Assembly: GCA_026002815.1 (NCBI GenBank)
Contig: BPGB01000001.1
Coordinates: 54,490 to 118,489, forward strand
DNA: 64,000 nt
Reading direction: 5' to 3'
From: Candidatus Woesearchaeota archaeon
Lineage (GTDB): Archaea > Nanobdellota > Nanobdellia > Woesearchaeales > UBA9642
Positions 1-18,385 of the stretch are shown here, in pieces (position 1 is the first letter of the stretch; the number at the start of each line of letters is the position of its first letter). The notes under the pieces were generated by a model that had not been told where the DNA came from, made no database searches, and saw nothing but the letters and a program-made list of their open reading frames with translations. A program made the translations under genes and the position numbers.

Positions 1-6
1 AACACT

Positions 7-78
7 TGTTAATTATTTTTAACATATTCAAGAAAAATCTAAATATTTAAATATTAATGTTAATTATTTTTAACATAT
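7..78 (+). promoter_or_regulatory. Two perfect 21-bp direct repeats (TGTTAATTATTTTTAACATAT at 7-27 and 58-78) flanking a TATA-like AT box (41-55). Each repeat contains TGTTAA-N6-TTAACA. Candidate operator and promoter of the first MNT-HEPN-hsdR operon.
   Basis: Read directly from the sequence. The second copy overlaps the ATG at 77. Confidence 0.5.
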
Positions 79-589
79 GTTAGATATACTTAACAATTTA
101 AAGCCTTTTTTTGAAGATAATTACAGAAAGATAAATGTTCGCGAGTATGCCAGGATTCAAAAAATAAGCCCGCCGACAGCTTCAAAAATTCTTGAAAATA
201 TGCATAAAGAAGGATTACTAAAAAAAGAAAAAGACAAGTTATACATATATTATTATCCTAATAGGGGATGCGATTTATTTATTGAATTAACAAGGATTTA
301 TTGGAAAAATGTTCTTGAAAATTGTGGTCTATTAAAAGAGCTTGAAGAAACCTTCTTGAATCCAGTAGTTATTCTTTTCGGCTCTTTGTCAAAGGCAGAA
401 GCGAAAAAGGATTCTGATATTGATTTAGCGATTTTTGCACCGTCAAAAAAAGAATTTAACAGTGAGAAATATGAAAAATTGCTAAAAAGAAAGATTCAAC
501 TTTTCATTTTTAAGAATTTGGAAGATGTTAAAAGCAAAGAATTACTTAATAATATACTAAACGGATATAAACTTAAAGGAGATTGGTGA
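77..589 (+). CDS. wHTH-fused minimal nucleotidyltransferase (MNT-type antitoxin-like), 170 aa
   Basis: N-terminal HTH-like segment NVREYARIQKISPPTASKILENMHKEGLL. NTase motif FGSLSKAEAKKDSDIDLAIF (GS...DxD). The stop lies one nt before the ATG of the HEPN gene. Confidence 0.8.
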   Translation: MLDILNNLKPFFEDNYRKINVREYARIQKISPPTASKILENMHKEGLLKKEKDKLYIYYYPNRGCDLFIELTRIYWKNVLENCGLLKELEETFLNPVVILFGSLSKAEAKKDSDIDLAIFAPSKKEFNSEKYEKLLKRKIQLFIFKNLEDVKSKELLNNILNGYKLKGDW

Positions 590-590
590 A

Positions 591-992
591 ATGGATTGGA
601 GCGAATGTATAGAAGAAAAGATAGTAAAAGAAGCAAAAGCTGATAAAAATCTTGCTTTATCATTGAAAGAAATTGCGAAGATAAAAATTAAATCAGCAGA
701 TAGTTTATCAGAAGAATTTTTCATAAGTAAAATTTCTTTATTGTATGATGCATTAAGAGAAATTCTAGAAGCAATAGCTATTCAAAAAGGATTTAAAATT
801 TATAATCACGAGTGCTATGCCGCATTTCTTAAGGAAATACTAAAAATGCCAGATGAAGCAAATATTTTTGATAATTTAAGAAAAACGAGAAATGCAATAA
901 ACTATTATGGAAGAAAACTTGACAAAGAAGAAAGTTTAGAGATTATAAAAAAAATAAAACAATTAATAGAAAAATTAAAAGATTTAGCATGA
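591..992 (+). CDS. HEPN-domain protein (partner of MNT), 133 aa
   Basis: All-helical small protein directly after the MNT gene. LRKTRNAINYYG sits where the HEPN R-x4-6-H motif is expected, but ends in Tyr. Its stop overlaps the hsdR ATG (ATGA at 989-992). Confidence 0.7.
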   Translation: MDWSECIEEKIVKEAKADKNLALSLKEIAKIKIKSADSLSEEFFISKISLLYDALREILEAIAIQKGFKIYNHECYAAFLKEILKMPDEANIFDNLRKTRNAINYYGRKLDKEESLEIIKKIKQLIEKLKDLA

Positions 993-3900
993 AAAAAGCA
1001 ATTTCAGAATCAGAAGTTGAAGAAGCAGCACTTGATATTCTGCGAGAATTAGGCTGGACTATTCTTCATGGTCCTGACATTTCCGAAGGTGGAAGTAATG
1101 AAGAAAGAAAATATAGTGAAGTTGTTTTAGTGAATAGATTAAGAAATGCGCTTGAAAGAATCAATAAAGACATTCCAGAAGAAGCGATACAAGAAGCAAT
1201 AAAAAAAGTTCTCAGGACAGACAGCCAGAACCAAATCATCAACAACCAACAATTCCATAAAATGGTTGTTAATGGCGTTGATGTTGAATACAAAAAGAAT
1301 GGGGAAATAAAAAATGATAAAATCTGGCTTTTTGATTTTAAGAATATAAAAAATAATGAGTTTCTTGCAGTAAAACCAATTTACAATCATTGAAGAAAGA
1401 AAAAACAGAAGACCGGACATAATCTTATTTGTTAATGGTTTGCCATTAGTTTTAATAGAATTAAAGAATCCTGCTGATGAGAATGCAACAATCTGGTCAG
1501 CATTTAATCAGTTTGAAACATATAAACAGCAGATTCCATCAGTTTTCAGGTTTAATGAAATTCTTGTAATAAGTGACGGGTTAGAAGCAAGAGCCGGAAC
1601 CCTTACAAGCAATAAAGAAAGATTTACGCCATGGAAGACTATTGATGGAAAGAAGATGCCAAAAACTGCTCCTCAACTAGAAATTTTACTAAAGGGTATG
1701 TTAAATAAAGAGGTCTTAATGGATTTGATCAGGCATTTCATTGTTTTTGAAATAGATAAAGACAAGAGAGAAGGAAGTGTAAAAATAATAAAGAAAATAG
1801 CTGCATATCATCAATATAATGCAGTAAACAAAGCAGTGCAATCAACAATAAACGCTACAAAAAAAGATAAAAGAGCAGGAGTTGTCTGGCACACGCAAGG
1901 ATCTGGAAAAAGTTTAATAATGGTATTTTATACAGGAAAGTTGGTTTTACAGCCAGAACTGGAAAACCCGACAATAATTCTATTAACAGACAGGAATGAT
2001 TTAGATGATCAATTATTTGGAACTTTTAGCAGATGCCACGAACTGCTAAGGCAGGAGCCAAAACAAGCAGAATCAAGAGATGAAATAAAAGAATTGCTTA
2101 AAGTTTCATCCGGAGGAATAATATTTACAACAATACAAAAATTTTTGCCAGAAGAAAAAGGTAAAAAATATCCCCTTCTATCTGAAAGAAAAAATATTAT
2201 TGTCATAGCAGATGAAGCTCATAGAAGCCAATATGATTTTATTGACGGATTTGCAAAACATATACGGGATGCTCTCCCAAACGCCTCGTTTATTGGATTT
2301 ACAGGAACACCTATAGAAAAAGCAGACAGAAGTACGCCGGCAGTTTTTGGGAAATATGTTGATGTTTATGATGTTGAGCAGGCAGTAGAGGATGAAGTGA
2401 CTGTAAGGATTTTCTATGAAAGCAGATTAGCAAAACTAGAATTAAAACCAGAAGAAAGACCTAAAATAGATAAGGATTTTGAAGAAGTTACTGAAGGTGA
2501 AGAGACAGAACATAAAGAAAAACTAAAAAGCAAATGGGCAAGACTTGAAAAAATTGTAGGAAGCCCAAATAGAATCAAGAGAATAGCAAAAGATATAGTC
2601 AATCATTGGGAAGAAAGACTAAATGTTCTTGACGGAAAAGCAATGATTGTCTGCATGAGCAGGAGAATCTGCATAGATTTGCATAATGAAATCATCAAAT
2701 TAAAGCCAGAATGGTATAATAAAGATGATGATAAGGGAGTTTTAAAAGTGATAATGACCGGCTCTGCTTCTGATCCAGTTGACTGGCAGGAACATATAAG
2801 AACAAAAGACAGAAGAAAAGCCATTGGGGAAAGAATGAAGGATGCTTCTGACCCTCTAAAAATAGTTATTGTCAGGGATATGTGGCTTACCGGATTTGAT
2901 GTTCCGTCTTTACACACAATGTATATTGACAAGCCAATGAGAGGGCATGGTTTAATGCAAGCAATCGCCAGAGTAAACAGGGTTTTTAAAGATAAACCTG
3001 GTGGATTAATAGTAGATTATATTGGGATTGCTTATGAATTAAAGAAAGCACTATCTGAATATACTGCTGGAGATCGGAAAGAGACAGGAATACCACAAGA
3101 AGAAGCAGTTGCTCTTATGCAAGAAAAATACGAGATTGTGTGTGGTTTATTCCATAAATTCAATTATAAAAAATTCTTTACTGCAACAACCAAAGACAAG
3201 ATGAAAATAATTGCAGATGCTATAGAACATATTTTGAAGCAAGAAAAAGGAAAAGAAAGATTCTTAAAATATGTAAGTGAGCTGTCAAAAGCCTTCGCTC
3301 TTGCTGTTCCTCACGAAGAAGCTATCAAAATAAGAGATAATGTTGGATTTTTCCAGGTGGTAAGGTCAGCAATTGCTAAGAATACTTCAACAAAAATATC
3401 AGATAGAGAGGATTTAGAAACAGCAATAAAACAAATTATCTCAAAAGCAATAGTCTCGGATAGAGTTATAGATATTTTTGAAGCTGCAGGTCTAAAAAAG
3501 CCAGACATTTCAATTTTATCAGAAGAATTTTTGGAAGAAGTCAAAAACATGCCTCAAAAGAATCTTGCATTTGAAATGCTGAAAAAACTTCTCAATGATG
3601 AAATCAAAATACGTCACAAGAAAAATCTTGTTCAAGCAAGGTCGTTCGCAGAAATGTTGGATAAAGCGATTAAGGCATATACTAATAAGAATATTGAAAC
3701 CGCAGAGGTAATTGAGCAGTTGATTGAATTAGCAAAAAAGATGCAGAATGAAAATAAAAGAACCAAGGAGATGGGTCTAAGTGAAGATGAAGTCGCTTTT
3801 TATGATGCCCTAGCAGACCATGAAGGAGTTAAAGAAGTTATGGGAGATGAAAAATTAATGATTATAGCAAGAGAACTTGTTGAAAGTATACACAACTCTG

Positions 3901-4070
3901 TAACAATTGATTGGACTATGAGGGAGAATGTCCAAGCAGAGATGAGAGTTAAAGTCAAGAAAATTCTAAGAAAATATGGTTATCCTCCAGATAAACAGCA
4001 GAAAGCAGCGGACACAGTTTTAGAACAGGCAAAATTATTATGTAAAGATTGGGCAGAGGCACAATCTTAA
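989..4070 (+). pseudogene. hsdR: Type I restriction enzyme R subunit (HsdR), interrupted by a +1 frameshift in the A4 run at 1372-1375
   Basis: ORF 989-1393 is a typical HsdR N-terminus. The next frame is open from 1374 and reads [32 protein letters not shown] (PD-(D/E)xK core). SF2 motifs follow: [26 protein letters not shown]. The C-terminal region is HsdR-type ([12 protein letters not shown]). Confidence 0.85.
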
Positions 4071-4098
4071 GTTATTTTCTTATATTTAATTGTTTCGT

Positions 4099-4416
4099 CG
4101 CCACCTCCGTTATAGTTAAAATTGTCTCCTATCAGTTCGTGCCACTAAAATTTAATTGCATAGAACATCGCGATTAAGAGAAGTCGTGAGCGTAGCGAAA
4201 GATTTGGGTGAAGCGAGGTGCAACCGAGTGGAGTCGGCTAAGCCCTGTTATACGCGTTTTCTCGAACAGAAAACCGAGGTTTAGTGCAACTTCCCGAAGG
4301 GAAACCGAAGAGTTAAATTTTAGTGGCAATCGTTCAATAAAGTGAAAACAGTAAGACATCGAGAACATATATCAAGGAGACAATTTTAATCAGTCGTTTC
4401 GTTAGGGAGAGGGGCG
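4099..4416 (+). ncRNA. Candidate structured non-coding element A (about 318 nt, GC-enriched), immediately 3' of hsdR
   Basis: Three nested long-range complementarities. First, 4099-4107 pairs with 4409-4416 (8 bp plus a bulge). Second, 4116-4130 pairs with 4375-4389 (15 bp, perfect). Third, 4141-4155 pairs with 4313-4327 (15 bp, perfect). There is also an internal GAA-loop hairpin at 4291-4303. Strand assignment is tentative. Confidence 0.45.
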
Positions 4417-4444
4417 TGTTTTTGGTTCTTTTTTTGAAAAAGAA
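4417..4444 (+). terminator. Oligo-T tracts (T5 at 4419-4423, T7 at 4429-4435) plus hairpin TTCTTTTT-TTG-AAAAAGAA (4426-4444). Candidate archaeal termination signal after element A.
   Basis: Read directly. Archaeal intrinsic termination uses oligo-T runs. Confidence 0.35.
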
Positions 4445-4477
4445 GGCAGTTTGAAGGGGGGCGTCGTTTCAGTAATA

Positions 4478-4486
4478 TTTATAAAG
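4478..4486 (+). promoter_or_regulatory. TATA-like box TTTATAAAG about 30 nt upstream of the RHH ATG
   Basis: AT box at the expected distance for a short-leader or leaderless archaeal transcript. Confidence 0.35.
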
Positions 4487-4514
4487 CTGTGTAAATATTT
4501 ATTATTAGATTACT

Positions 4515-4661
4515 ATGGGAAGCAAGAACATAACTCTAAAAGTTGATGAAAAACTATACAATGCCTATAAGGAATACTGCAAAAAGAAAGGCTTAATTAT
4601 ATCAAGGCAGTTTGAGATTTTCGTTGAGCAACAACTTAAAAAAAGTGATAAAAATGGATAA
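4515..4661 (+). CDS. Small ribbon-helix-helix (CopG/Arc-like) protein, 48 aa. Absent from the ORF track because it is under 60 aa.
   Basis: Own translation: MGSKNITLKVDEKLYNAYKEYCKKKGLIISRQFEIFVEQQLKKSDKNG. The pattern is beta-strand (ITLKVD), helix, G, helix. The ORF overlaps the methyltransferase ATG (4654) by 8 nt. Confidence 0.6.
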   Translation: MGSKNITLKVDEKLYNAYKEYCKKKGLIISRQFEIFVEQQLKKSDKNG

Positions 4662-7600
4662 TGATTTAGAATTAAGAAAGGAGATACATGAAAATTTAAG
4701 AAAAATTAAGACAGCAAAGGATATTTTTAGCCTGCTTAAGAAATTAAACTATCCTGAAAATGTGGTTTTTGATATATCCTCAAAAAGAAAAAAATCTACT
4801 TTTGACTTCAAAAAAGAAGATGAACAAAGAATAAAAGAAATTTATTCTGTATTAAGTTTTGATGAAAAGCTTCATGTTTTTCTCTTGGAAGTCTCAACTT
4901 TAACACCCTCTTTTATAAGGTCTGTAACAAGCACATTTGATAAGCAATATCTTCATTTTTTATTGATATTTTCTTCTGACTATTCAGAAATTGTTTTTGT
5001 CTTTCCCAATCGTGAAAAAATCGAGGCTGGAAAACACAAACTGAAACTAACAAAACTAATAGTGAACAGGGATGAAATCCATTATACAGATATTCAAACA
5101 CTCTCAAATATATCTTACGAAGGGGAAGGTAATTGGAGGGACATCTGGAGAAAATGGAAAAAAGCATTCAGCGTTGAGAGAGTAACAGAGGATTTCTTTG
5201 AAGATTATAAAAACATCTTTTTTACATTAAGGAACGAGTTGAACAAGCAAAGTGTTCCTATAAAAGAATCTCACGAGTTTACCTTGCAATTTCTAAACAG
5301 GATAATGTTCATTTATTTCATTTCAAAAAAGAAGTGGCTGGAGCATCCCAGATTTATGGAATGGGTTTGGACTGCTTATAAGAAGCTGAATAAATATGGA
5401 TCTGATGAGTTTTACGAAAAATGGCTTAGACAGATTTTCTTTAAAGCGTTTAACAACCGCTCCAATGAATTGGCAGGATTGCCAGGAGATATTATAAAAG
5501 CAATATCAAATTCTCCTTATTTAAATGGAGGACTATTCAGAGAAAATGGATTGGATAACCTTAAAATCAAAATCAGCGATAAGATGTTTGAGAGAATCTT
5601 TGAGTTCTTTGAGAAATACAATTTTACAATAAAAGAAGACATGCCTCTTGAGCAAGAGGTTGCGGTTGATCCTCAAATGATTGGATATGTTTATGAATCT
5701 TTGGCTAATGTCGCTGAAGAGATTTATGATAGAAATGATTTAGGTATATTCTATACTCCTAGAGTTGAAGTGGATTTCATGTGTAGGCGTTCCTTGGTTG
5801 AGTATCTTTCAAAGCACCTACCAGAAGTTCCAAAAGAGAAATTTTATCATCTGATATTTGATTTGCCTGAAGAGAAGGAAAAAATAGAAAAATGGTTTAG
5901 TGAAAATAATTTATGTAGTAAATTAGAAGAAATTTTAGATGAACTATCTGTTGTTGATCCTGCTTGTGGCTCAGGTGCTTTTTTGGTTGGAATGCTAAAT
6001 GTTCTTGCAGAAGTTTATAGATCAATCAACAAACACTTGAATAGAAATTTAACGGATTTTCAATTGAAAAATAGGATTATCCAGTATTCGCTTTATGGAG
6101 TTGATGTAATGACTTGGGCAATACATGCTGCAGAGCTAAGACTATGGCTTCAATTAATTGTCGAAACTGAATTCAAAAAAGAAGAGTTAAGAAAACATCC
6201 TTTACTGCCAAACTTGAACCTTAATTTAAGGATTGGAGATTCATTAGTTCAAGAAATTGGCGGCATTAGTTTTAATTTAAAAACTAATAACTTGAAACCT
6301 CATTTGAAAAAGAAGCTTGAAGACCTGAAACAAGAGAAAAGAAAATACTTTGAAAATTCTCCAACAGCAAAATTCAAAACACCTGAAGAAGTCAAAGCAG
6401 AAGAGATAAGGCTTTTTGAAGAGATTATTGATGAAAGGATTGAGAGTTTAGAAACTGATATTGAAGTTTTAGAAAATTCTGAAAAGAAAAAAGAAAAACA
6501 AACAGGACTCTTTGGCTCAGAAATAAATATTGAAGCAAAAAACATAAAAAAAGAAAAAGAGGAGATTGAAAAAATTGAAAAGAAAATACAAGATAATAAG
6601 AAAGAAATTGAAAATTTAAAAAAAGTAAAAGAATTGCTTAAAGAACCAGATAAAAAACCATTTGTATGGGATATTGATTTTGCTGAAATATTTGCCGAGA
6701 AAAATGGTTTTGATATTGTTATAGGAAATCCGCCTTATGTCAGGCAGGAAATGATTTCCCCGCCAAATAAGTTAAAGTCAGAAGTTACACTTGAAGACAG
6801 AAGAGAGTATAAAGAAAAATTGATTAATTCTGTAAAAAAGGTTTTTCCTGTTGTAGAGAATATTGACAAGAAAAGCGATTACTACATTTATTTTTATTTT
6901 CATGGTTTAGGTTTATTGAATGAAAAAGGAACATTCTGCTTTATCACAAGCAATTCTTGGCTTGATGTTGGTTATGGAAAAGAGTTGCAGGAATTTCTAT
7001 GCAAGTATGTTCCAATTTTAGGAATTTATGACAATCCAAAAAGAAGTTTTGCACATGCAGATGTTAACACAATAATTGCTTTATTTGGTGCTCCAAAGTT
7101 TGCGGAAGAAAAAACAATTCATGGTTTTAAGATTTCAGGAAATGAAAATAACTGGCCAATGCTAAATCATACTGCAAAGTTTGTAATGTTCAAGAAGCCA
7201 TTTGAAGAAGTTGTTAATTCAAAAAATCTTATTGAAATTGAAAACATTAAAGTTGAAACAAAAGGCGAAGGTATTACAGAATTAGTGAAAAATGTTAAAA
7301 AAACAGATGATTACAGATGTTTTCCAATATTACAAGGTGATTTGTTAGAAGATGGCTGGGAATATCCTGAAAATTATCAAAAAGAAAAAGGCAGATTTAA
7401 AGCTGGTAGTTATGAAGGCAACAAATGGGGCGGTAAATTTTTAAGAGCACCAGATATTTTTTATACGATTTTGGAGAAGGGTAAAGGAAAACTTGTAAGA
7501 TTAGGAGATATTGCTGAAGTGCGTCGTGGCTTTACGACAGGAGCGAATGAGTTTTTTTATCTTCCCAGCAAGTATTTTGATATAAAAGAAGAAGAAAAAT

Positions 7601-8412
7601 ACTACAAACTAATTCCAAAAGAAGAAGGTTTGCCAAATGATATTAAAATAGAGAAAGAATTTTTGAAGCCTGTAATAAAAAGCCCCAGAGAATGTAAAAC
7701 AATTCTAATAAATCCAAATGATTTGAAATACAAAGTATTTATGTGCCATAAAACAAAAAATGAGTTGAAAGGAACAGGTGCGTTGAAATATATTGAATGG
7801 GGTGAGAACGTTAAAGTTGAAATAAAACAAGGTTCAGATGAAGGTAAAAAAATAAAAGGATTTCAAAACATTTCAACAGTAAAGAACAGAGAGCTGTGGT
7901 ACTCGCTCCAATCTAATTTTGGAGCTAATATTTTTATACAAATGTCATTTAATGACACATTCCCTTTTTATTATTCCCAGAAAAAAATGCTAGCTGATGC
8001 TCGTCTATATGAAATAAAGATTAAAGATTTTAATTCTGAGCAATTAGCCTTATCTCTGAACTCTACATTATCAGTTATATTTATGGAACTTTTCGGAAGA
8101 TCTAATCTAGGTGAGGGAGCATTAGATTTCAAAGTTTATGAGGCTAAAAAAATATTATTTATAATAAAAAATATAAGAAATAATAAAATTTTACGCAGAA
8201 AGCCAAATCCAATCTTCACCGAACTCGGCTTCGATCCAAGTAAACCAATCCGTGAGCAAGAGCCAAAACCCTTGCCTGATAGAGCTGAGCTTGACAAAAT
8301 TATTTTTGATGAGCTTGGTTTAAGTGAGGAGGAAAAAAAAGAGGTTTATTGGGCTGTTGCTGAGTTGGTTAAGCAAAGGATTGATAAAGCCAAAAGTGTT
8401 AAAAGAGATTAA
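4654..8412 (+). CDS. Large gamma-class N6-adenine DNA methyltransferase of the Eco57I/type IIG/PglX-like family with its own specificity domain, 1252 aa from ATG 4654
   Basis: Motif I is VVDPACGSGAFLVG and motif IV is VIGNPPYV. Family-typical blocks are AFSVERVTEDFFEDY and FLNRIMFIYFISKKKWL. A K/E-rich coiled-coil linker is present. C-terminal VRRGFTTGANEFFYL resembles a TaqI-like specificity domain. The track start at 4612 is a TTG; ATG 4654 is preferred. Confidence 0.8.
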   Translation: MDNDLELRKEIHENLRKIKTAKDIFSLLKKLNYPENVVFDISSKRKKSTFDFKKEDEQRIKEIYSVLSFDEKLHVFLLEVSTLTPSFIRSVTSTFDKQYLHFLLIFSSDYSEIVFVFPNREKIEAGKHKLKLTKLIVNRDEIHYTDIQTLSNISYEGEGNWRDIWRKWKKAFSVERVTEDFFEDYKNIFFTLRNELNKQSVPIKESHEFTLQFLNRIMFIYFISKKKWLEHPRFMEWVWTAYKKLNKYGSDEFYEKWLRQIFFKAFNNRSNELAGLPGDIIKAISNSPYLNGGLFRENGLDNLKIKISDKMFERIFEFFEKYNFTIKEDMPLEQEVAVDPQMIGYVYESLANVAEEIYDRNDLGIFYTPRVEVDFMCRRSLVEYLSKHLPEVPKEKFYHLIFDLPEEKEKIEKWFSENNLCSKLEEILDELSVVDPACGSGAFLVGMLNVLAEVYRSINKHLNRNLTDFQLKNRIIQYSLYGVDVMTWAIHAAELRLWLQLIVETEFKKEELRKHPLLPNLNLNLRIGDSLVQEIGGISFNLKTNNLKPHLKKKLEDLKQEKRKYFENSPTAKFKTPEEVKAEEIRLFEEIIDERIESLETDIEVLENSEKKKEKQTGLFGSEINIEAKNIKKEKEEIEKIEKKIQDNKKEIENLKKVKELLKEPDKKPFVWDIDFAEIFAEKNGFDIVIGNPPYVRQEMISPPNKLKSEVTLEDRREYKEKLINSVKKVFPVVENIDKKSDYYIYFYFHGLGLLNEKGTFCFITSNSWLDVGYGKELQEFLCKYVPILGIYDNPKRSFAHADVNTIIALFGAPKFAEEKTIHGFKISGNENNWPMLNHTAKFVMFKKPFEEVVNSKNLIEIENIKVETKGEGITELVKNVKKTDDYRCFPILQGDLLEDGWEYPENYQKEKGRFKAGSYEGNKWGGKFLRAPDIFYTILEKGKGKLVRLGDIAEVRRGFTTGANEFFYLPSKYFDIKEEEKYYKLIPKEEGLPNDIKIEKEFLKPVIKSPRECKTILINPNDLKYKVFMCHKTKNELKGTGALKYIEWGENVKVEIKQGSDEGKKIKGFQNISTVKNRELWYSLQSNFGANIFIQMSFNDTFPFYYSQKKMLADARLYEIKIKDFNSEQLALSLNSTLSVIFMELFGRSNLGEGALDFKVYEAKKILFIIKNIRNNKILRRKPNPIFTELGFDPSKPIREQEPKPLPDRAELDKIIFDELGLSEEEKKEVYWAVAELVKQRIDKAKSVKRD

Positions 8413-8413
8413 A

Positions 8414-10060
8414 ATGAGCGAAGAAAAAAATAGATCAAAATCTCATGTTATCTTTAGCACAAGAGATAAACTAAATTCCGATAGCGAATACTATGGTAAA
8501 ATATACAAGATAAAGAATCTTACTAAGACAATCGTTCTCGTTGCTTCCTTTCTTCTAGTATTAATGCTAGCTATTTTTGTGTTTAATTCTAATCCTGATT
8601 TTAGTAATAAAGATAATTTAAGATATTTATTTAGTACATCTGCACAAACACTTGGAGCAATTTTTGGAATAATAATAACAATTACCTTTATGATTATACA
8701 AGTGAATATTCAAAAATACGGGCAGAAAATTTATTCATTCTTAATTAAAAGTAGATTTATTTTATTTTATACATTTTTGGCTTTATTATCCATATTACTT
8801 TCGTTAGTGTCTATACTATTTGTAGAGAAAATATCTCTATTTAAAATAGTGCTTGACAATTTTAGTTTTACTTTTTTAACATCGTACTTACACATTTTTA
8901 CATCTGTTCTTACAGGAATGTCTTTGATTTTTTTACCTTATTTTATCTACGAATTAATCTCCAAATTAAACATCATTAATTATCTAAGATACCTTTATGA
9001 AAACACAGTTGATGCGATCAACAAAAAAAATATAGATAAAGTTGAAAATAATCTATCTTTGATATTGGGCGTATTAAATAACGGTATTAGAGAAAGAGAT
9101 AGAGATACAATAAAGGAAGGTATTGAAACTTCACACGATTTGCTAAAATTTGCGATATGTAATCAGAAAGCAATGAATGATCTATTATTGCACGCTGGGA
9201 AACCAGAAGGAATGTTTAATTATAGGAGTAATTGGTTTGAAGATGAAATTTTGAGTAGTCTCGAGTCTTCTTTTAAAATATTATTAGAAACACGACAATA
9301 TAATTCTGCGAGATATTTAGTCAAAGGACTTAACTCATGTGCAACCGAAACACTGAATTTTGATTACCATGAGAGTATAAGAGGAAGAATAATAAAAACA
9401 TATCAAAAGTTTATTCTCCTATCATTAAAGGAAAATGAGTTACAAGAAGAAATTATACAAGAATTTAGGTTATTTTTTGAAAGATCCCTTTGTTTAGAAA
9501 AATCTGATTTTAGATTAATCATTAATGACTTGTTTGAAGAAACGTTCGTCATTGAATTGATAAAGAATCGTCCAGATATTATTGAAAAATTGATTTCAAC
9601 TTACTTTTATACCATAAAAAGAGGAATTCCATTTTGCAAGATAGATAATGAGAATGTAGTCGCTTTAGTTGAAGAAATAGGTAGCATAGTATCTATTTGT
9701 AATAAGTTAAAGCAAATAAAAGCTATTGACTCACGTCTCGCCTTATTTTTTAGTAATAAACTAAATGAACAAATCTCTGACATCGCATACCTCTTATCAT
9801 TATTCGTATTTTCAAAAAAAGATATAGAAAACTCAAAAAGGTGTAGGAAAATAATTAGAAGTTTTTTAAACGTAAACTCCATGAATAAAAAAATAGAAAA
9901 AATCGTAACAGATAAAAACGACTGGAAACCACGATTTAACTATTTGGTTCACCATCTATTTACTGAGATCAAAGAAGATAATGGAAAAACTGATTTTATT
10001 TTCAAACATAAAAATGTAATTAAACTTGCAAAAAATTTTAATAAAATGACGGTGAAATGA
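8414..10060 (+). CDS. Multi-pass membrane protein (4-5 N-terminal TM helices plus about 330-aa helical soluble domain), possibly DUF2254-like
   Basis: ATG 8414 lies one nt after the methyltransferase stop. TM segments include TIVLVASFLLVLMLAIFVF, LGAIFGIIITITFMIIQV, FILFYTFLALLSILLSLVSILFV and FTSVLTGMSLIFLPYFIY. The family assignment is from memory only. Confidence 0.55.
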   Translation: MSEEKNRSKSHVIFSTRDKLNSDSEYYGKIYKIKNLTKTIVLVASFLLVLMLAIFVFNSNPDFSNKDNLRYLFSTSAQTLGAIFGIIITITFMIIQVNIQKYGQKIYSFLIKSRFILFYTFLALLSILLSLVSILFVEKISLFKIVLDNFSFTFLTSYLHIFTSVLTGMSLIFLPYFIYELISKLNIINYLRYLYENTVDAINKKNIDKVENNLSLILGVLNNGIRERDRDTIKEGIETSHDLLKFAICNQKAMNDLLLHAGKPEGMFNYRSNWFEDEILSSLESSFKILLETRQYNSARYLVKGLNSCATETLNFDYHESIRGRIIKTYQKFILLSLKENELQEEIIQEFRLFFERSLCLEKSDFRLIINDLFEETFVIELIKNRPDIIEKLISTYFYTIKRGIPFCKIDNENVVALVEEIGSIVSICNKLKQIKAIDSRLALFFSNKLNEQISDIAYLLSLFVFSKKDIENSKRCRKIIRSFLNVNSMNKKIEKIVTDKNDWKPRFNYLVHHLFTEIKEDNGKTDFIFKHKNVIKLAKNFNKMTVK

Positions 10061-11214
10061 TGTCAAAAAAATCAATCACTGTTGAGGTGAATCCAGAAGT
10101 CTTAAAGTGGCTTAGGGAAAGATCTGGGTGGAAGATAGAAGAAGTAAGCAAAAGGCTAAGTACTACTGTTGAGAATGTAACTGAATTTGAAGCTGGAGGA
10201 AAATCACCTACACTAACACAATTGAAGATTTTATCAGGATTGTTTAAATGTCCATTGGCTGCTTTCTTTTTATCTGAGCCAAAAGAAGAAAAGCCTTTGC
10301 CTAAAGATTACAGATTTCTACCGGATAAAACAAATATCTTTGATAAAAAAACAATTTTGGCAATAAAAAAAGCAAGAGACTTGCAAAAGATAGGCAAAGA
10401 ACTTTCATTAAACATAAGATATGAAACAAAAACAAAAGTTGAGAAGGTCAAACTATCTGAAAATCCTGATTTGATTGCAAAAAGATATAGAGAACTATTC
10501 AATCTTGACTTTGAGAAGCAAGCAAAATTCAAGGATGCTTATAAGCTATTTAATTATCTCAGGGATGTTCTTGAAAATATAAATATTCTAGTTTTTCAGT
10601 TTTCAATGCCAATTGAAGATGCAAGAGGCTTCACACTAACAGATGAGTCGCCTGCTGTTATTGTTGTAAACTCCAGAGACAGCATTGAAGCAAGACTATT
10701 TACTCTCATGCATGAATTTGGACATATTATTCTGGGAGAAACAGTTATAGATATACCTGAAAGGTCGCTGGCAATCAGAGATAATATTGAAAGATGGTGC
10801 AATTCATTCGCCTCTTCCTTCCTATTGCCTACACAAGTAGCAAAAGAGATATTTAAAGAAAAACAAACAAAATTAACTGATACACAAACATTAAACAACC
10901 TATCTAGAAAATACAAGGTAAGCAAAGCAGTGCTTCTAATCAAAATGCTTAACTTAGGATATATCTCGCAATCGGATTTTGACGCTGTTGTTGAAAGATA
11001 TGTTCCAAAAGAAACCGAAAAAAAAGTTGAGCGAGAAAAAAAAGGAATAAGCTTAGCTTCTGATACGAGGTGCCTTTCTGAGATGGGCAACAAATTCATT
11101 TCACTTGTTGCAAACAACTTTGACAATAATTTCATAACATACTCAGATGCTTTGAGTTATCTATCAATTAAATCGAAGAACTTCGAGAAGGTTCTAGCTA
11201 AGGCGAGAAAATGA
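10057..11214 (+). CDS. XRE-type HTH fused to ImmA/IrrE (COG2856) zinc metallopeptidase, 385 aa
   Basis: N-terminal HTH region is LKWLRERSGWKIEEVSKRLSTTVENVTEFEAGGKSPTLTQLKILSGLF. HExxH motif is LMHEFGHIILGE. The ATGA start overlaps the upstream stop. Confidence 0.8.
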   Translation: MMSKKSITVEVNPEVLKWLRERSGWKIEEVSKRLSTTVENVTEFEAGGKSPTLTQLKILSGLFKCPLAAFFLSEPKEEKPLPKDYRFLPDKTNIFDKKTILAIKKARDLQKIGKELSLNIRYETKTKVEKVKLSENPDLIAKRYRELFNLDFEKQAKFKDAYKLFNYLRDVLENINILVFQFSMPIEDARGFTLTDESPAVIVVNSRDSIEARLFTLMHEFGHIILGETVIDIPERSLAIRDNIERWCNSFASSFLLPTQVAKEIFKEKQTKLTDTQTLNNLSRKYKVSKAVLLIKMLNLGYISQSDFDAVVERYVPKETEKKVEREKKGISLASDTRCLSEMGNKFISLVANNFDNNFITYSDALSYLSIKSKNFEKVLAKARK

Positions 11215-11702
11215 CATCAAATTGCTATATCATAGATTCATCGTCATTGATAGAGTTAAACAGGCACAACCCAATTGATGTGTTCCCTAGTGTATGGAAA
11301 AATATGGAGTCATTAGTTAACAAAAGTTTGCTTATAGCACCTAAAGAAGTACTTAATGAAATAAAAAAAAAAGACGATCAGTTAGCAAAATGGGCCAAGA
11401 AACAAAACAATCTTTTTAAGGATCCGACACCAAAACAAATAGAAATACTAAAGGATATATTGAAAAACTATCCTGCATTGGTAAAACTAGATAGGAAATA
11501 CAATGCTGATGCATGGGTTATTGCATTAGCCATTGAAATGGCTTCGGGTTCACAAAAAACATTATTACCTATAAAAAGAATAGTCGTAACAGAAGAAAAA
11601 TTAAGGGGAAATAAGATTAAAATACCTCTTGTTTGTCAAAAATATAGTATAGAAACGATCGACATCATAGACATGTTTAGAATAGAAGGATGGAAGTTTT
11701 AA
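11211..11702 (+). CDS. DUF4411-like PIN-fold protein (usual partner of ImmA/IrrE peptidases), 163 aa
   Basis: N-terminal YIIDSSSLIEL is a PIN-like acidic motif. Size and position directly after a COG2856 gene fit the known pairing. ATGA overlap with the upstream gene. Confidence 0.6.
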   Translation: MTSNCYIIDSSSLIELNRHNPIDVFPSVWKNMESLVNKSLLIAPKEVLNEIKKKDDQLAKWAKKQNNLFKDPTPKQIEILKDILKNYPALVKLDRKYNADAWVIALAIEMASGSQKTLLPIKRIVVTEEKLRGNKIKIPLVCQKYSIETIDIIDMFRIEGWKF

Positions 11703-11778
11703 AAAGTAGAAACTCTTTGGATTATATTAATAACATTTATCATCAGAAACACGATTAAAGCTCATCCAAACAAAAACA

Positions 11779-11815
11779 TTTAAATATATGGTAATACAAC
11801 CATAATATTATGGTA
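11779..11815 (+). promoter_or_regulatory. TATA-like box TTTAAATATA, palindrome ATGGT-N6-ACCAT (11788-11803) and a repeated ATGGTA at the start codon. Candidate operator of the second MNT-HEPN cassette.
   Basis: Read directly from the sequence. Confidence 0.4.
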
Positions 11816-12385
11816 AAAAACCATAGCAAACTTATAAGAACATTATTAGAAAACCAAGATAAAGAACTTAACATATTAGATTTATCCAGATATTCTAAAA
11901 TTGACTACAAAAATGTTTACAACATCATTAAGGATTTAGAAAAAGAAGGTTTAGTTGAAACAAATGTCTTTGGGAAAACAAAAAGAGTTATTCTTAACAA
12001 AAAAGTTCATCCTTTGATTTTCGAAGCAGAATACGAAAGAAGAAAATACTTATTAAAAAATAAAGACTTTTTAGTTTTACAAAAAAAACTTTCCTCATTA
12101 GAATTCCCATTTATAGCATTGCTTTTCGGCTCTTATGCTAAAGGAAATCAAACTAAACATTCTGATATTGACATATTAATTATTTGTGAGGAAAAAAGAG
12201 AAAATCAAATGCAAGAAGTTTTAGATTTTTTTCCATTAAAAATCCATCCAACAATTGTTAATTTTGAAGATTTTATAAAAATGTTAAAAACAAAAGAATT
12301 CAATGTTGCAATAGAAGCAGTTAAAAATAACATAATTTTAATAGGTATAGAAGATTATTACAGGTTGTTAGAAAATGTTAAGTGA
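11810..12385 (+). CDS. wHTH-fused minimal nucleotidyltransferase (second MNT), 191 aa
   Basis: wHTH segment is LDLSRYSKIDYKNVYNIIKDLEKEGLVE. NTase motif is LLFGSYAKGNQTKHSDIDILII. Confidence 0.8.
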   Translation: MVKNHSKLIRTLLENQDKELNILDLSRYSKIDYKNVYNIIKDLEKEGLVETNVFGKTKRVILNKKVHPLIFEAEYERRKYLLKNKDFLVLQKKLSSLEFPFIALLFGSYAKGNQTKHSDIDILIICEEKRENQMQEVLDFFPLKIHPTIVNFEDFIKMLKTKEFNVAIEAVKNNIILIGIEDYYRLLENVK

Positions 12386-12902
12386 AAAAAGAATAAAAGA
12401 AGCTGAAAGTAATGTGAATAAATATTTGAAAGAAGGGCTTTTGAAAAAATCAGATTTTAATAAACAAATTTTAGATATATTAAAGAAAAACGCAGATGAA
12501 AGTTTGGAAGTTGCAATTTTCCTTAACAAAAATAACAAATCCTCTCTTTGGATTATTGTAGTTTCATATTATTCTATGTTTTATTTGGCAAATGCTTTAT
12601 TGTACAGATTAGGTTATAAAGTTGGAGACAAAATTGCGCATAAAGTAACAGCAGATGCATTAATGATTTTTGCAAGAGAAAAAATTAAAGATGCTTTAAT
12701 AGAAGGATATGAAGAAATTAGAGATGAAGCATTAGCCAAAATGAAATCAGATGAATTAATTGAATACTTTGATTTTGAAAGAAGAAAAAGAAGTTTTATT
12801 CAATACAATACACCGGAAGAAATAAAAATATCAAAAGTTAAAACTTCATTAGAAAGAGCTAAAGAATTTATGTTTCAAATAAGTAAATTGCTTGAGGAAT
12901 AA
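12375..12902 (+). CDS. HEPN-domain protein (second copy), 175 aa
   Basis: Helical protein that overlaps the MNT gene by 11 nt. ERRKRSFIQYN sits at the HEPN motif position and again ends in Tyr rather than His. Its stop lies 2 nt before the PLD-SNF2 ATG. Confidence 0.65.
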   Translation: MLSEKRIKEAESNVNKYLKEGLLKKSDFNKQILDILKKNADESLEVAIFLNKNNKSSLWIIVVSYYSMFYLANALLYRLGYKVGDKIAHKVTADALMIFAREKIKDALIEGYEEIRDEALAKMKSDELIEYFDFERRKRSFIQYNTPEEIKISKVKTSLERAKEFMFQISKLLEE

Positions 12903-12904
12903 AA

Positions 12905-15900
12905 ATGCCCATACCAAAAGAAATAATAGATAACAGCGAAGGGAACAAGTTGATTAGTTTCCTGAATAACGCTTTAAAGGAAAATCCGAAGACAAAGCTT
13001 GACATAGCAACTGCTTTCTTCAACATAGAAGCCTTTGCAATGATTAAAGACAGCCTTAATGGCGTTGAAAGATTCAGGCTTCTTCTTGGCAAAGCTCCTG
13101 AAATACAGAACGAAAAAACACTTGGAGATGTTCTTTTGCAGGAAATAAGAAAAGAAGTCGAAGGCTTTGATTTGACAAAAGATTCAGATCAAACAGTAAA
13201 ATTGTTTATTGAATTCCTAAAAAGAAAAAATGTTGAAATAAGATTATTTGAGAAATTCCTTCACGGTAAGGCATATATATTTGATGATAGAATAGTTATC
13301 GGTTCTTCAAATTTTACTTCTGCAGGTTTAACAAGATATGGAGAATTAAACACTTGGCAGTTAAAATCACATGCAGATCATACAAGAAAAGAATGGTTTG
13401 AAAAATTCTGGGTAGAATCTGTTGATTTTAAAGATAAATTAATAAAACTTTTAGAAGAGTCAAGGTTTGGTAGCAAAGAATATACTCCTTACGAAGTTTA
13501 CATTAAAACCTTATACGAACTGCAAAAAGAGGATATAAAAGAAGAGCAGAAAGAGGAAAAACCAAGAGGTTTGCCAGAAACAAAGGTCAACTTAGCACAA
13601 TTCCAAGAAGATGCAATCGCAAGAATCTGGACTAGGATGAGAAAATATGGTGGCTGTATAGTTGCTGATTCTGTTGGATTGGGGAAAACTTGGATTGCTA
13701 AAAAGATTCTTGAGAAAATAGGATATTATGAAAGAAAGAATATTTTGATTATTTGTCCTGCTCAGCTAAGAGAGATGTGGAGAAAAGAATTGAAAAAAAT
13801 TGATGTTAAAGAGAACATTCTTTCACAGGAGGATTTGGCATCGGAGAAATATTTGGAAAAAGCAAAAAAAGCTTTGGGTGGACGGTTTGATAATGTTGAA
13901 TTAATTGTAGTTGATGAAAGTCACAATTTCAGAAATCCTTTGTCTAATAGATGGGAGAACTTTTTTACCTTGGTTAATGACCATATTGCCAAAAAGCAAA
14001 GACCAAAAATGCTTTTCCTTACAGCAACACCAATAAACAACACGCCTTGGGATCTATACTGGCAGATTATGCTTCTTGTACTAATGGACAGATCAGCATT
14101 TATCAAGGAAAACATTCCAGATTTGTTCAAATTCTTCAAACAGGCAAAAGAAAATCCTTCTTTATTGAATGACTTGCTAAATGAGATTTCCATAAGAAGA
14201 ACAAGAGACTACATAATAGAAAATTACCCAGATGCATTTATTATAGTTGAGTTGCCAAACGGAGAAACAAAAGAGCAAAAGATAATTTTCCCAGAAAGAG
14301 TTTTAGAAAATATCAATTATCAGTTAGATAAAGCATACAAAGGAATGTATAAGGAAATTTCTGACACAATAACAGAAAAGCTAATAATGGCGTATTATAA
14401 GATTCTGGAATACAGAAAAGAAGGTTTGAAGAGCGAAGAAGAACTACTTGCATTAGGTAGAATGATAGCCATAGGTGGAATATTTAGAACAATTCTTCTC
14501 AAGAGACTGGAGAGTAGTGTTGATGCTTTCAGAAAAAGCATATCTAATCATATAAAATTCTTAGAAAAGCTAAAAACCTATCTAAAATCTGGAAAGCTTC
14601 TTACAAAAGAAACTTATTTCAAATATTTAATGAGCCTAGATGAGGAACTGGAAGAAGAGGATTTGAAGGATATTCTTAAAGAATTCAAAATCAAAGAATA
14701 CAATGCAAATAAATTGTTTGAGGATATAGATACAGATATTAACCTGCTTAAAGTAATTTTGGAAAAAGTAAGTAAAATTACACCAGAAGAAGACTCTAAG
14801 CTCAAGGTATTGAAGGATAGACTTATAGAGTTGTCAAAAGATGGTCAGATTGTTCTATTTACTTACTATGCAGACACATTGAACTATATTTATGAAGAGA
14901 TACGACGCGATAAGAGATTTTCAAAGCTTAAAATTGAAGCCATATCTAGTTCAGGATTAACGAGTAAAAATCCGCAACAAAGAGAAAAAATAGTTGAAGA
15001 TTTCTTTTCAAAGAAAATTGATATATTATTAAGTACGGATGTGTTGTCTGAAGGACAGAATCTGCAATCTGCCAAATATTTAATAAATTACGACTTGCAT
15101 TGGAACCCTACAAGAATGATTCAAAGGGCAGGAAGGATTGACAGAATTGGCTCCCCCTACAAAAAAATATTTGTATATAATTTCTTTCCTGAAGATGAGC
15201 TCGAAGAATTATTAAAGCTTGTTGAGATTTTGCAGAATAAAATAATCGACATTGACAAATCCGTTGGTTTAGACCAGACTATACTTGGCGAAGAAATACA
15301 TCCGAAAGTATTTGGAATAATCAGGCATATTAGAAGCAAAGATGGTAAAATATTCGCAGAACTAGAGCAAGACGCTTTTGGTGGTGGGGAGAGATTTTAT
15401 CAACCTCTCAAAGACTTTTTAAAAAATAAAGGTGTAGAAGAACTTGAAAAAATGCCTTTAGGAATTTATAGTGGCCTAAAGAAAAACAAAATTTCTGCAA
15501 TATTTCTCTATTACAAATATGGAAATGACTTTCATTTCTGGTATATATACGATGTAAGTAATAGTTCAATTCTCACAAATAAGACAGATATATTGGGGTT
15601 TATAAGTTGTAAACAAAATGAAGAGAGAGTTATTCCTGACTTCTTTGAGAAGGTATACGAAGTTAATAAGATCGTAGTTGAAGATATTGAAAGAATGTAT
15701 AAAGAAATAGAATTGAGCTATACACAAGACTCAAAGTTAAAAGAACTGAGCAAATCCAGAAGCACTAAATTTGTAAAAAACATAATAAATGAAATAGAAC
15801 TTCAGATAGAATCTTATCTTAATGAATTTCCTGATGACGATTCAATAGAAAAAATCTGGGAGCCTATAAAAAACAAACTTATCTCCATCCCACAAACAAA

Positions 15901-16078
15901 AAAGAGACTCCAAAATCTAAGGAGAATATGGAGACAGTACAGAAAAGATAACGATTGGAGAAAAATGATTAAAGAATTAAGTGACTTTTTAATAGAAAAA
16001 GGAATTTTCAAGAAAGCAATTATTGAACCATTTGATAAAATGAAATTGAAATTGATTACTATTGATTTTATTTCGTAA
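12905..16078 (+). CDS. Phospholipase-D-family nuclease domain fused to an SNF2-family helicase/translocase, 1057 aa
   Basis: Single HKD motif FLHGKAYIFDDRIVIGSSNFTSAGL. SNF2 motifs are ADSVGLGKTWIA (I), VVDESHNFRN (II), LTATPINN (III), LSTDVLSEGQNLQ (V) and HWNPTRMIQRAGRIDRIG (VI). Confidence 0.85.
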   Translation: MPIPKEIIDNSEGNKLISFLNNALKENPKTKLDIATAFFNIEAFAMIKDSLNGVERFRLLLGKAPEIQNEKTLGDVLLQEIRKEVEGFDLTKDSDQTVKLFIEFLKRKNVEIRLFEKFLHGKAYIFDDRIVIGSSNFTSAGLTRYGELNTWQLKSHADHTRKEWFEKFWVESVDFKDKLIKLLEESRFGSKEYTPYEVYIKTLYELQKEDIKEEQKEEKPRGLPETKVNLAQFQEDAIARIWTRMRKYGGCIVADSVGLGKTWIAKKILEKIGYYERKNILIICPAQLREMWRKELKKIDVKENILSQEDLASEKYLEKAKKALGGRFDNVELIVVDESHNFRNPLSNRWENFFTLVNDHIAKKQRPKMLFLTATPINNTPWDLYWQIMLLVLMDRSAFIKENIPDLFKFFKQAKENPSLLNDLLNEISIRRTRDYIIENYPDAFIIVELPNGETKEQKIIFPERVLENINYQLDKAYKGMYKEISDTITEKLIMAYYKILEYRKEGLKSEEELLALGRMIAIGGIFRTILLKRLESSVDAFRKSISNHIKFLEKLKTYLKSGKLLTKETYFKYLMSLDEELEEEDLKDILKEFKIKEYNANKLFEDIDTDINLLKVILEKVSKITPEEDSKLKVLKDRLIELSKDGQIVLFTYYADTLNYIYEEIRRDKRFSKLKIEAISSSGLTSKNPQQREKIVEDFFSKKIDILLSTDVLSEGQNLQSAKYLINYDLHWNPTRMIQRAGRIDRIGSPYKKIFVYNFFPEDELEELLKLVEILQNKIIDIDKSVGLDQTILGEEIHPKVFGIIRHIRSKDGKIFAELEQDAFGGGERFYQPLKDFLKNKGVEELEKMPLGIYSGLKKNKISAIFLYYKYGNDFHFWYIYDVSNSSILTNKTDILGFISCKQNEERVIPDFFEKVYEVNKIVVEDIERMYKEIELSYTQDSKLKELSKSRSTKFVKNIINEIELQIESYLNEFPDDDSIEKIWEPIKNKLISIPQTKKRLQNLRRIWRQYRKDNDWRKMIKELSDFLIEKGIFKKAIIEPFDKMKLKLITIDFIS

Positions 16079-16107
16079 AGTTAAGACTCCCCTTCGTTTT
16101 TCGTACG

Positions 16108-16426
16108 TTCGTAAAAGCACCTGCCCGTTTCGTCAGAAAAATCTTTGGATGAAGCGAAGCGAAACCGCTTAACCAATGTTAGACTTTGTTTGCGAAGCAA
16201 ATTTAGTTATCTTTTTAGTTGTGAAGGTTAAGCGAAGGATTCGCTAGAAAAGCATAGCTTTTCTGCGCACCAAAAACCATTGGTTTTTGAGTGTTTCAGT
16301 TCCGTAAGCAAACTCCTCTCAAATTAGGGGTGGGTGGTTGGGAGGAAAGCCGAATTCTGAATTACGCCTAACATCTATTAAGCGTAATATTATTGTGTTT
16401 AATTGGAGGTTACGGTTTTTTACGAA
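16108..16426 (+). ncRNA. Candidate structured non-coding element B (about 319 nt, GC-enriched), immediately 3' of the PLD-SNF2 gene
   Basis: Nested complementarities are 16108-16116 with 16418-16426 (9 bp), 16118-16126 with 16328-16336 (9 bp including two G-U pairs on the plus strand) and 16166-16174 with 16226-16234 (9 bp). Local hairpins are at 16189-16201 (GAA loop), 16246-16264 and 16361-16387. It shares collinear sequence blocks with element A. Confidence 0.45.
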
Positions 16427-16462
16427 ATAAGTTTATAAATCTATATTTTTCATCTTATATTG

Positions 16463-16744: not shown

Positions 16745-16856
16745 TTAAATTCTATTGATATAATTAATGCAAAAAATATATTCTTATAATATTAAAAATT
16801 ATTAATATAAAAAGTAATAATAAATATTTTAATAATGATTAGTAAATTAAAGATGC

Positions 16857-18341: not shown

Positions 18342-18385
18342 AATTTCACCTTTTGAAATCCATACAAACAATATAAGTATTAGTC

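Follow-up and report, generated by a model that had tools for sequence, protein, structure and literature searches.

Restriction-modification (RM) systems of Type III and Type ISP combine a methylase that carries a specificity domain with an SF2 ATPase-nuclease acting on unmodified DNA, and in Type ISP both reside in one polypeptide. Class 1 DISARM (DrmA, DrmB, DrmC, DrmD, and DrmMI) includes an Eco57I-type N6-adenine methylase, an SNF2 helicase, and a PLD nuclease domain, with self-marking through methylation as its presumed logic. In Hma or "Type-2 BREX-related (BR)" systems, an N6-methyltransferase is accompanied by a helicase that joins an N-terminal HKD endoDNase to a Swi2/Snf2 core; the operons embed auxiliary HEPN/PIN "backup effectors," and their hallmarks are a DUF499 AAA+ ATPase (HmaC) and a stand-alone DUF3780 gene, the latter found in 98% of members (Rakesh & Krishnan 2026, PMC12839542). 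Here, we analyze a 64,000-nucleotide (nt) stretch of a Candidatus Woesearchaeota archaeon genome (contig BPGB01000001.1, positions 54,490 to 118,489; the window), which encodes a large methyltransferase (MTase, or M) and, 4.5 kb downstream, a PLD-SNF2 protein (R). Together, M and R probably constitute an unnamed two-gene, RM-like core with a cargo slot, loaded here with a membrane protein and two toxin-antitoxin pairs. No dedicated description of an M plus PLD-SNF2 pair was found in the literature; a study of programmed inversions (PMC9881135) notes, as an aside, pairs of a Cj0031-like Type II RM gene and a neighboring PLD + SNF coding sequence.

The initial annotation of this DNA had drawn the system differently, as five genes encoding a ribbon-helix-helix (RHH) protein, M, a multi-transmembrane (TM) protein, an XRE-ImmA peptidase (XRE-M78), and a DUF4411 PIN protein, with the membrane and PIN proteins as candidate effectors. 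Related loci were collected with the M alignment from one genome per species, which gave 80 loci with flanks of up to 10 kb; 83 loci were fetched for this comparison, and loci are numbered with the prefix L where they must be told apart. By tblastn, and with the window not counted, R was located beside the M homologue in 62 of the 83 fetched loci. In the genome scan, 60 of 80 loci contain R, and where M has flanks of 5 kb or more on each side, 26 of 28 do (93%). The conserved partner of M is therefore R, in a near-obligate linkage, and not the membrane or PIN protein. The ImmA-PIN pair does recur beside M, but the five-gene set is not fixed. With the window included, tblastn matches to PLD-SNF2 were obtained in 62 loci plus the window, compared with 15 loci for XRE-M78, 13 for DUF4411, 4 for the membrane protein, 3 for the RHH protein, and 2 for an MNT/HEPN pair. 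All-against-all clustering of approximately 1,000 neighboring open reading frames (ORFs) from the 83 loci yielded no third widely shared family around M and R, and housekeeping genes often border the pair directly.

Pairwise identities of M and R are correlated (Spearman 0.93), with the qualification that the pairs are not independent and that the correlation is partly driven by the split between archaea and bacteria. Loci with both genes span many archaeal phyla as well as bacteria. Plasmids from cultured bacteria, namely, Planktothrix agardhii p4 and Deinococcus radiophilus pRadio5, share this layout, and their genes are annotated only as "DNA methyltransferase," "SNF2-related," or "helicase-related protein." M itself belongs to a very large family, with 7,698 matches from many archaeal phyla, with 56 to 80% identity among the 120 best listed.

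In R, Pfam placed PLDc_2 at amino acids (aa) 28 to 169, followed by ResIII/SNF2-rel_dom/Helicase_C. PADLOC returned "HKD+Snf2" (8e-48), DrmD (1e-44), and HmaA (1e-31), and NCBIfam returned DrmD (1e-52). The HKD..GSSN, Walker A, and DExH motifs are invariant across 54 sequences, as is motif VI, and the catalytic machinery of R looks active. M is predicted to be an N6-adenine DNA methyltransferase of the gamma type that has intact catalytic motifs and carries its own specificity region. Its Pfam matches were Eco57I (1.6e-25), MmeI_Mtase (1.6e-12), and N6_Mtase, and its PADLOC matches were REase_MTase_IIG (9e-56, the best) and DrmMI (5e-23). Alignment with homologues sets its start at ATG 4654 rather than at the upstream TTG 4612. 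Mean column conservation drops to 0.45 over aa 941 to 1190, against approximately 0.8 on either side; this variability fits a built-in, swappable target-recognition domain (TRD) and is consistent with the specificity domain that had been proposed for M. In one subfamily (L017 10001-14986, L012, L047, and many matches of about 900 to 917 aa), the M gene ends at about aa 905 to 950, before the TRD-like region, and a Schlafen/AlbA_2 + HATPase_c_4 gene comes next. In L017, a separate 284-aa ORF after the latter gene matches the C terminus of M, an arrangement that represents either an insertion into the M gene or a split M/specificity layout.

The first 170 residues of M were modeled by AlphaFold2 (AF2) as a small alpha/beta domain with a pLDDT of about 90. 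Across 26 homologues, no conserved D...(D/E)xK motif was detected in the N terminus: E79 is the only acidic strand residue that never changes, and the lysine position of a would-be ExK is occupied by K, T, or S. The N terminus gave no sequence match in a phmmer search of the PDB, and aa 1 to 170 gave no Pfam match at a lax threshold. Foldseek found no PDB fold match for the AF2 model of aa 1 to 430, a two-domain, 430-aa model with a pTM of 0.49. Alignments to the PADLOC Type IIG profiles begin only at aa 171 and leave the N-terminal domain unmatched, and bacterial members of the family do not share the N-terminal 100 to 170 aa. Because neither a conserved motif nor a PDB, Foldseek, or Pfam match was found in this region, M is considered to be without a recognizable nuclease, and the same searches uphold the initial annotation on this point.

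Judged by its profile matches, the M-R system is related to DISARM and to Hma/BREX-related type 2. The methylase, SNF2 helicase, and PLD nuclease domain of Class 1 DISARM all have counterparts here, and the presumed logic of self-marking through methylation would be shared. However, a single protein combines PLD with SNF2, the core consists of two genes rather than five, and NCBIfam scores lie well under the DISARM cut-offs (180 versus 610). No DrmA or DrmB (DUF1998) gene was found in the island of the window or as a recurrent neighbor in the 83 loci, and DISARM membership was rejected on the absence of these two genes. With Hma/Type-2 BR, R shares the N-terminal HKD plus Swi2/Snf2 architecture, and an N6-methyltransferase is adjacent in 62 loci. 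Nine large neighbors (MMPL, tRNA synthetase, FeoB, dehydratase, and similar proteins, or proteins without a Pfam match) gave no DUF499 match, and DUF3780 did not turn up in a sample of approximately 45 slot and flank proteins scanned against Pfam; membership in Hma/Type-2 BR was rejected on these grounds. BREX membership was rejected as well. M scored 30 to 60 bits against the NCBIfam MTaseX/PglX models, whose cut-offs are 400 to 900, and no PglZ/BrxC-like gene was found among the neighbors at 1-18371 or as a conserved cluster in related loci, in agreement with the earlier reading that BREX genes are missing here.

The predicted functional layout also resembles Type III and Type ISP enzymes, in that an M with a specificity region is paired with a putative ATPase-nuclease R. 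Unlike those enzymes, the nuclease here is PLD/HKD and not PD-(D/E)xK or Mrr, the ATPase is of the SNF2 type, and the methylase is an Eco57I/MmeI-like, gamma-class protein of approximately 1,250 aa. This comparison draws in part on PMC3874165.

The genes from the RHH-like ORF to R form one compact same-strand array (Table 1), which we infer to be a single operon. ORF listing and direct reading reproduced the five genes first described and every one of their junctions, that is, the 8-nt overlap, the 1-nt gap, and the two ATGA overlaps. Their compactness was thus correctly recognized, but the array does not stop at 11702; it continues through MNT, HEPN, and PLD-SNF2, and the five-gene set covers the 5′ two-thirds of an operon with the form M-[cargo]-R. 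The start of the membrane protein is ATG 8414 and not GTG 8324, as homologues align from Met 8414. Tight packing is not unique to the array, since the MNT/orf591/HsdR genes at 77-1393 of the same window are spaced just as closely; tight junctions alone are therefore weak evidence for a system.

Table 1. Features of the array, its surroundings, and a recurrent accessory gene (window positions unless a locus is named)
Feature	Position (nt)	Strand	Size or residues	Junction or basis
RHH-like ORF	4515-4661	+	48 aa	8-nt overlap with MTase (ATG 4654; shared 4654-4661)
MTase, M subunit	4654-8412	+	1252 aa	Stop 8410-8412; 1-nt gap to next gene
MTase N-terminal family-specific domain	4654-5163	+	aa 1-170	
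MTase S-adenosylmethionine (SAM) motif DPACGSG	5956-5976	+	aa 435	
MTase catalytic NPPY	6727-6738	+	aa 692	
MTase hypervariable TRD-like region	7474-8223	+	aa 941-1190	Conservation profile
Membrane protein	8414-10060	+	548 aa	ATG 8414; ATGA overlap at 10057 with XRE-M78
XRE-M78	10057-11214	+	385 aa	ATGA overlap at 11211 with DUF4411
XRE-M78 HEFGH	10711-10725	+	aa 219	
DUF4411	11211-11702	+	163 aa	107-nt gap (11703-11809) before MNT
MNT with winged helix-turn-helix (wHTH)	11810-12385	+	191 aa	11-nt overlap with HEPN
HEPN-like	12375-12902	+	175 aa	2-nt gap to PLD-SNF2
PLD(HKD)-SNF2, R subunit	12905-16078	+	1057 aa	Last gene of same-strand array
R HKD..GSSN	13262-13312	+	H120/K122 + GSSN133-136	Invariant, 54 sequences
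R Walker A	13676-13690	+	G258-K261	Invariant, 54 sequences
R DExH	13913-13924	+	aa 337-340	Invariant, 54 sequences
Imperfect direct repeat, left copy	4203-4226	+	24 nt	20/24 identical
Imperfect direct repeat, right copy	16144-16167	+	24 nt	20/24 identical
Tyrosine recombinase/integrase C-terminal fragment	16460-16744	+	94 aa	Pfam Phage_integrase 1.4e-18, profile 106-170/172 only
Cas4-like PDDEXK_1, L001	8406-9041			
Cas4-like PDDEXK_1, L017	21879-22553			
Cas4-like PDDEXK_1, L028	11121-11795			
Cas4-like PDDEXK_1, L085	7037-7228			
Cas4-like PDDEXK_1, L086	2373-2942			

Among the 62 loci with both M and R, the two genes are directly adjacent in 28 and are separated by one to five same-strand genes in 34. 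The order M>R accounts for 39 loci, 28 of them with inserts, and the order R>M accounts for 23, of which 6 have inserts. The junction between M and R acts as a slot for accessory genes in this lineage. Pfam identified the inserts as DUF488, radical SAM + wHTH, YhcG/DUF1016 nuclease, PIN, ORF6N, Schlafen/AlbA_2 + HATPase_c_4, DUF365, Mrr_N, Fic/DOC + HTH, DUF4365, AAA_14-DUF4143, DUF3800, FRG, GmrSD, and a sigma-70-like protein, along with many proteins without a family, a mixture typical of defense accessory genes. Recurrent accessories in the flanks include a Cas4-like PDDEXK_1 nuclease, an MBL/RMMBL hydrolase, PIN-ATPase-KH, and AIPR-Mrr. The PDDEXK_1 nuclease (approximately 190 to 224 aa), absent from the window, recurs just 3′ of the PLD-SNF2, membrane protein, or DUF4411 gene. 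The slot of the window is loaded with the membrane protein, XRE-M78/DUF4411, and MNT/HEPN. In L001, DUF4411 is followed directly by R without MNT/HEPN, and in L017, MNT/HEPN is present and XRE-M78 is absent, so cassettes have evidently been exchanged. Because slot contents differ among genomes, the five-gene set is one particular cargo load and not a fixed system.

One cargo is the XRE-M78/DUF4411 pair. XRE-M78 matched Peptidase_M78 (4.5e-18) and HTH_3 (1e-7) in Pfam, the NCBIfam spr1629 antitoxin family under its cut-off (2.5e-19), and 16 PADLOC profiles of RmrA, the RosmerTA antitoxin (best, 4e-23). Residues H219/E220/H223/E245 are invariant in its homologues. DUF4411 was identified by Pfam (2.2e-29), and its acidic residues D9/E50/D100/E129 are all invariant. 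Both proteins look active, as a predicted antitoxin/sensor and a PIN-like toxin nuclease. This architecture had been considered part of an undescribed system; however, a fusion of helix-turn-helix (HTH) and DUF955 (M78) domains with DUF4411 downstream is a published three-component toxin-antitoxin arrangement (Matelska 2017, PMC5499597), represented in that 2017 survey by 13 archaeal versus 616 bacterial sequences, and RosmerTA has been shown to defend against phage (Millman 2022; also Ernits 2023). As in RosmerTA, an XRE-HTH + Zn-peptidase antitoxin adjoins a small co-oriented toxin. Unlike in RosmerTA, the pair is embedded between M and R, both in the window and in 13 or more related loci, and co-diverges with them, and an archaeal host is unusual. 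The novelty of the pair is its context inside the M-R operon.

XRE-M78/DUF4411 lies in the slot or 3′ of it in 14 of the 62 loci and usually fills the slot exactly. It is always 3′ of M on the same strand and often overlaps the M stop or follows it by 0 to 14 nt, which in many cases leaves no space for a separate promoter. The identity of the pair follows that of M and R over the range of 81% to 28%, the bacterial loci L051 and L065 included (Spearman 0.80 to 0.88, over pairs with the dependence noted for M and R). Complete M-XM78-D4411-R operons were found in L088 and L089, and the pair stands at the contig start in L086 and L087. L092 contains M-XM78-D4411 without R, and its toxin is frameshifted. 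DUF4411 is split into two ORFs, with XRE-M78 intact, in L090 (9149-9641), L091 (8469-8961), and L092 (3758-4248); all three pairs are without PLD-SNF2, and the Nitrososphaera pairs (L090 and L091) are without M as well. This decay of DUF4411 once R or M is lost hints at dependence. Co-divergence and placement argue that XRE-M78/DUF4411 is a long-term, co-inherited passenger of the M-R operon. The ImmA-PIN pair is thus no chance neighbor of M.

The multi-TM nature of the membrane protein was confirmed, with approximately four predicted N-terminal TM helices followed by an all-helical, repeat-like cytoplasmic domain (AF2 pLDDT 65.6). The protein matched no family or informative fold: Pfam gave nothing above threshold (DUF2254, E = 0.0019, under the cut-off), and Foldseek, with a model of modest quality, returned only generic or designed helical repeats. 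Homologues are rare, amounting to 3 among 5.8 billion proteins and, by profile search, 24 cluster representatives among 1.84 billion; a metagenome scan added only duplicates or near relatives of known loci, and the protein is missing from all 80 genome-scan loci. It is encoded directly 3′ of M in three of four lineages, namely, the window, L001 (= L084), and L002/L085. L001, with a membrane protein 86% identical, has the order MTase-TM-XRE/M78-DUF4411-PLD/SNF2-PDDEXK_1, and L002 (49% identical) has MTase-TM-PDDEXK_1. L085 has the order R>M>TM>PDDEXK_1 with an M just 31% identical, and L003 (45% identical) shows no M within the 190 nt available upstream. This recurrence suggests that the membrane protein is genuinely, though rarely, associated with M.

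The small RHH-like protein is probably a regulator of the operon, its strand-helix-helix being read from the 48-aa sequence alone. It had no Pfam match and scored 17 bits against NCBIfam RelB_DinJ (E = 0.005; cut-off, 45.65). The gene directly precedes M only in the window and, as homologues, in L054 (89%) and L028 (63%), or 3 of 44 loci. Both the RHH and the membrane protein, put forward as system components, are therefore better described as sporadic accessories. MNT matched Polbeta (1.8e-9) and NTP_transf_2 (3.9e-9) in Pfam and PDC-M05A (9e-14) in PADLOC; the HEPN-like protein matched Pfam HEPN below its cut-off (E = 9e-4; 19.8 bits versus 22) and PADLOC PDC-M05B (1.5e-6). MNT/HEPN is a predicted pair of antitoxin and RNase toxin. 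It occupies the slot position only in the window and L017, with HEPN 77% identical to its L017 counterpart.

The array sits in a mobile defense island that ends at about 16.8 kb with an integrase remnant at its edge, after which a housekeeping leucyl aminopeptidase is encoded on the opposite strand. Upstream, a type I HsdR gene is split by a frameshift into 989-1393 (the HSDR_N part) and 1440-4070 (the remainder, aligned to the profile from position 145 on). Two small genes come directly before it, a wHTH-MNT gene (77-589) and a 133-aa ORF (591-992) whose last 4 nt are shared with the beginning of HsdR. The window thus contains two cases of an MNT-type module placed just ahead of a gene for a restriction subunit; homologues of both the wHTH-MNT gene and the 133-aa ORF lie upstream of M in L054. 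The block from RHH to PLD/SNF2 is bracketed by a 24-nt repeat, TTTGG[G/A]TGAAGCGA[G/A]G[T/C]G[C/A]AACCG, which may be an att-like scar marking the boundary of an inserted RHH-to-R block. The search pattern was derived from both copies, which makes the shuffle statistic circular, and a rough estimate of chance occurrence is 0.02 to 0.05; the repeat is absent from 94 related loci. The 444-nt gap that separates HsdR from RHH contains a locally G+C-rich stretch (4170-4330). A structured RNA in this gap was rejected, with no credible Rfam match and folding z-scores of 0.9 and 0.1, so that neither strand folds better than shuffled controls. Elsewhere, the window is archaeal by its RNase P RNA (53321-53645), with a G+C content of approximately 29%, and Rfam detected a tRNA spanning 109 nt at 29957-30065 that ARAGORN did not report and that is probably an intron-containing archaeal tRNA.

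Other accounts of the locus were weighed against these data. It is very improbable that RHH, M, the membrane protein, XRE-ImmA, and DUF4411 are a self-contained new defense system, even though every junction is an overlap or a 1-nt gap, the order MTase-TM-XRE/M78-DUF4411 recurs in L001, M has no detectable nuclease, and the ImmA-PIN pair co-diverges with M. L001 does not provide independent support because it is a close relative, as the 86% identity of its membrane protein indicates. The membrane protein occurs in none of the 80 genome-scan loci and RHH in 3 of 44; in L002/L085, the membrane protein is followed not by ImmA-PIN but by a PDDEXK_1 gene and then the contig end. All complete five-gene-like loci also carry R downstream, and 28 loci have M and R adjacent without cargo. 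A methyltransferase wired to membrane and PIN effectors thus fails as a new system, and an M-R pair with variable cargo probably explains the locus. That M is instead a conventional Type IIG enzyme acting alone, with a nuclease concealed in its N terminus, and PLD-SNF2 a separate defense gene, is extremely unlikely. The best PADLOC matches of M are indeed Type IIG profiles, homology of its bacterial relatives to Cj0031, a Type IIG enzyme, has been reported (PMC9881135), and the N-terminal domain is a predicted compact alpha/beta fold with an invariant Glu. However, those profile alignments leave that domain out, it lacks a conserved D...(D/E)xK and any PDB or Pfam match, bacterial members do not have it in common, and R co-diverges with M and accompanies it in 93% of fully flanked loci.

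An M-R unit among autonomous cassettes (XRE-M78/DUF4411, MNT/HEPN, and the membrane protein) that settled at a permissive intergenic site of a defense island without a functional tie is likewise unlikely, but it draws on several observations: the genes in the slot are very diverse, both XRE-M78 + toxin and MNT-HEPN are toxin-antitoxin types known to be autonomous, and the HsdR fragment of this window has a second MNT module directly ahead of it. Arguing against it, XRE-M78/DUF4411 always lies 3′ of M on the same strand, often with an overlap or a gap of at most 14 nt; its identity follows that of M and R into the bacterial loci; and DUF4411 is frameshifted where R or M has been lost (L090 to L092). 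Some findings weigh against a two-gene core with co-inherited cargo. Two fully flanked loci, L058 and L078, carry M without R, which indicates that M can persist alone, and a divergent nuclease may be hidden in the modeled N terminus of M. The identity correlations carry the dependence among pairs described above. Operon status is based on spacing and strand only, and the 107-nt gap at 11703-11809 could hold a promoter. XRE-M78/DUF4411 is patchy on the R tree and stands alone in Nitrososphaera (L090 and L091), so that it may be an autonomous hitch-hiker and not a functional part. On balance, M and R as a two-gene core with exchangeable cargo remains the probable reading.

In such a system, M would methylate host sites and thereby mark host DNA, and it would recruit R to the target; recruitment by M is proposed because only M holds a specificity domain and R has no recognizable specificity module. 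R would then translocate on unmethylated DNA using ATP and cut with its HKD nuclease. By analogy, this mechanism resembles that of Type III, of a split Type ISP, or of the DrmMI/DrmD/DrmC part of DISARM. The toxin-antitoxin cassettes of the slot, presumably co-transcribed with the RM genes, might provide a second, abortive-infection layer, or addiction and stabilization of the locus. A precedent for a latent RNase encoded within an RM operon is the prr locus, for which PMC1484252 describes a PrrC anticodon nuclease (ACNase) inside the Type Ic EcoprrI operon that is silenced by the RM enzyme and unleashed when phage inhibits restriction. We tentatively entertain, as a rather doubtful extension, that M-R is a widespread two-gene immunity class whose slot is a docking site, with XRE-M78/DUF4411 and perhaps the membrane protein guarding M-R in a PrrC-like manner, such that inhibition or loss of M-R would be sensed and an RNase or membrane effector released. 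PrrC combines an ABC-ATPase with an ACNase, whereas the M78/PIN and MNT/HEPN proteins here are unrelated to it, and guarding would be pure extrapolation from that case.

Overall, the apparent novelty of a methylase-membrane-PIN system reflects a boundary drawn too early, at a locus whose M and R genes annotation pipelines name only "Eco57I methylase domain protein" and "helicase-related protein." If M plus HKD-SNF2 is accepted as a minimal relative of DISARM and Hma, thousands of "orphan Type IIG methylases" would gain a restriction partner, and the pair could serve as a simple model of methylation reading by SNF2/PLD effectors. The cargo slot, rich in unknown genes, would then be a place to seek new archaeal defense genes.

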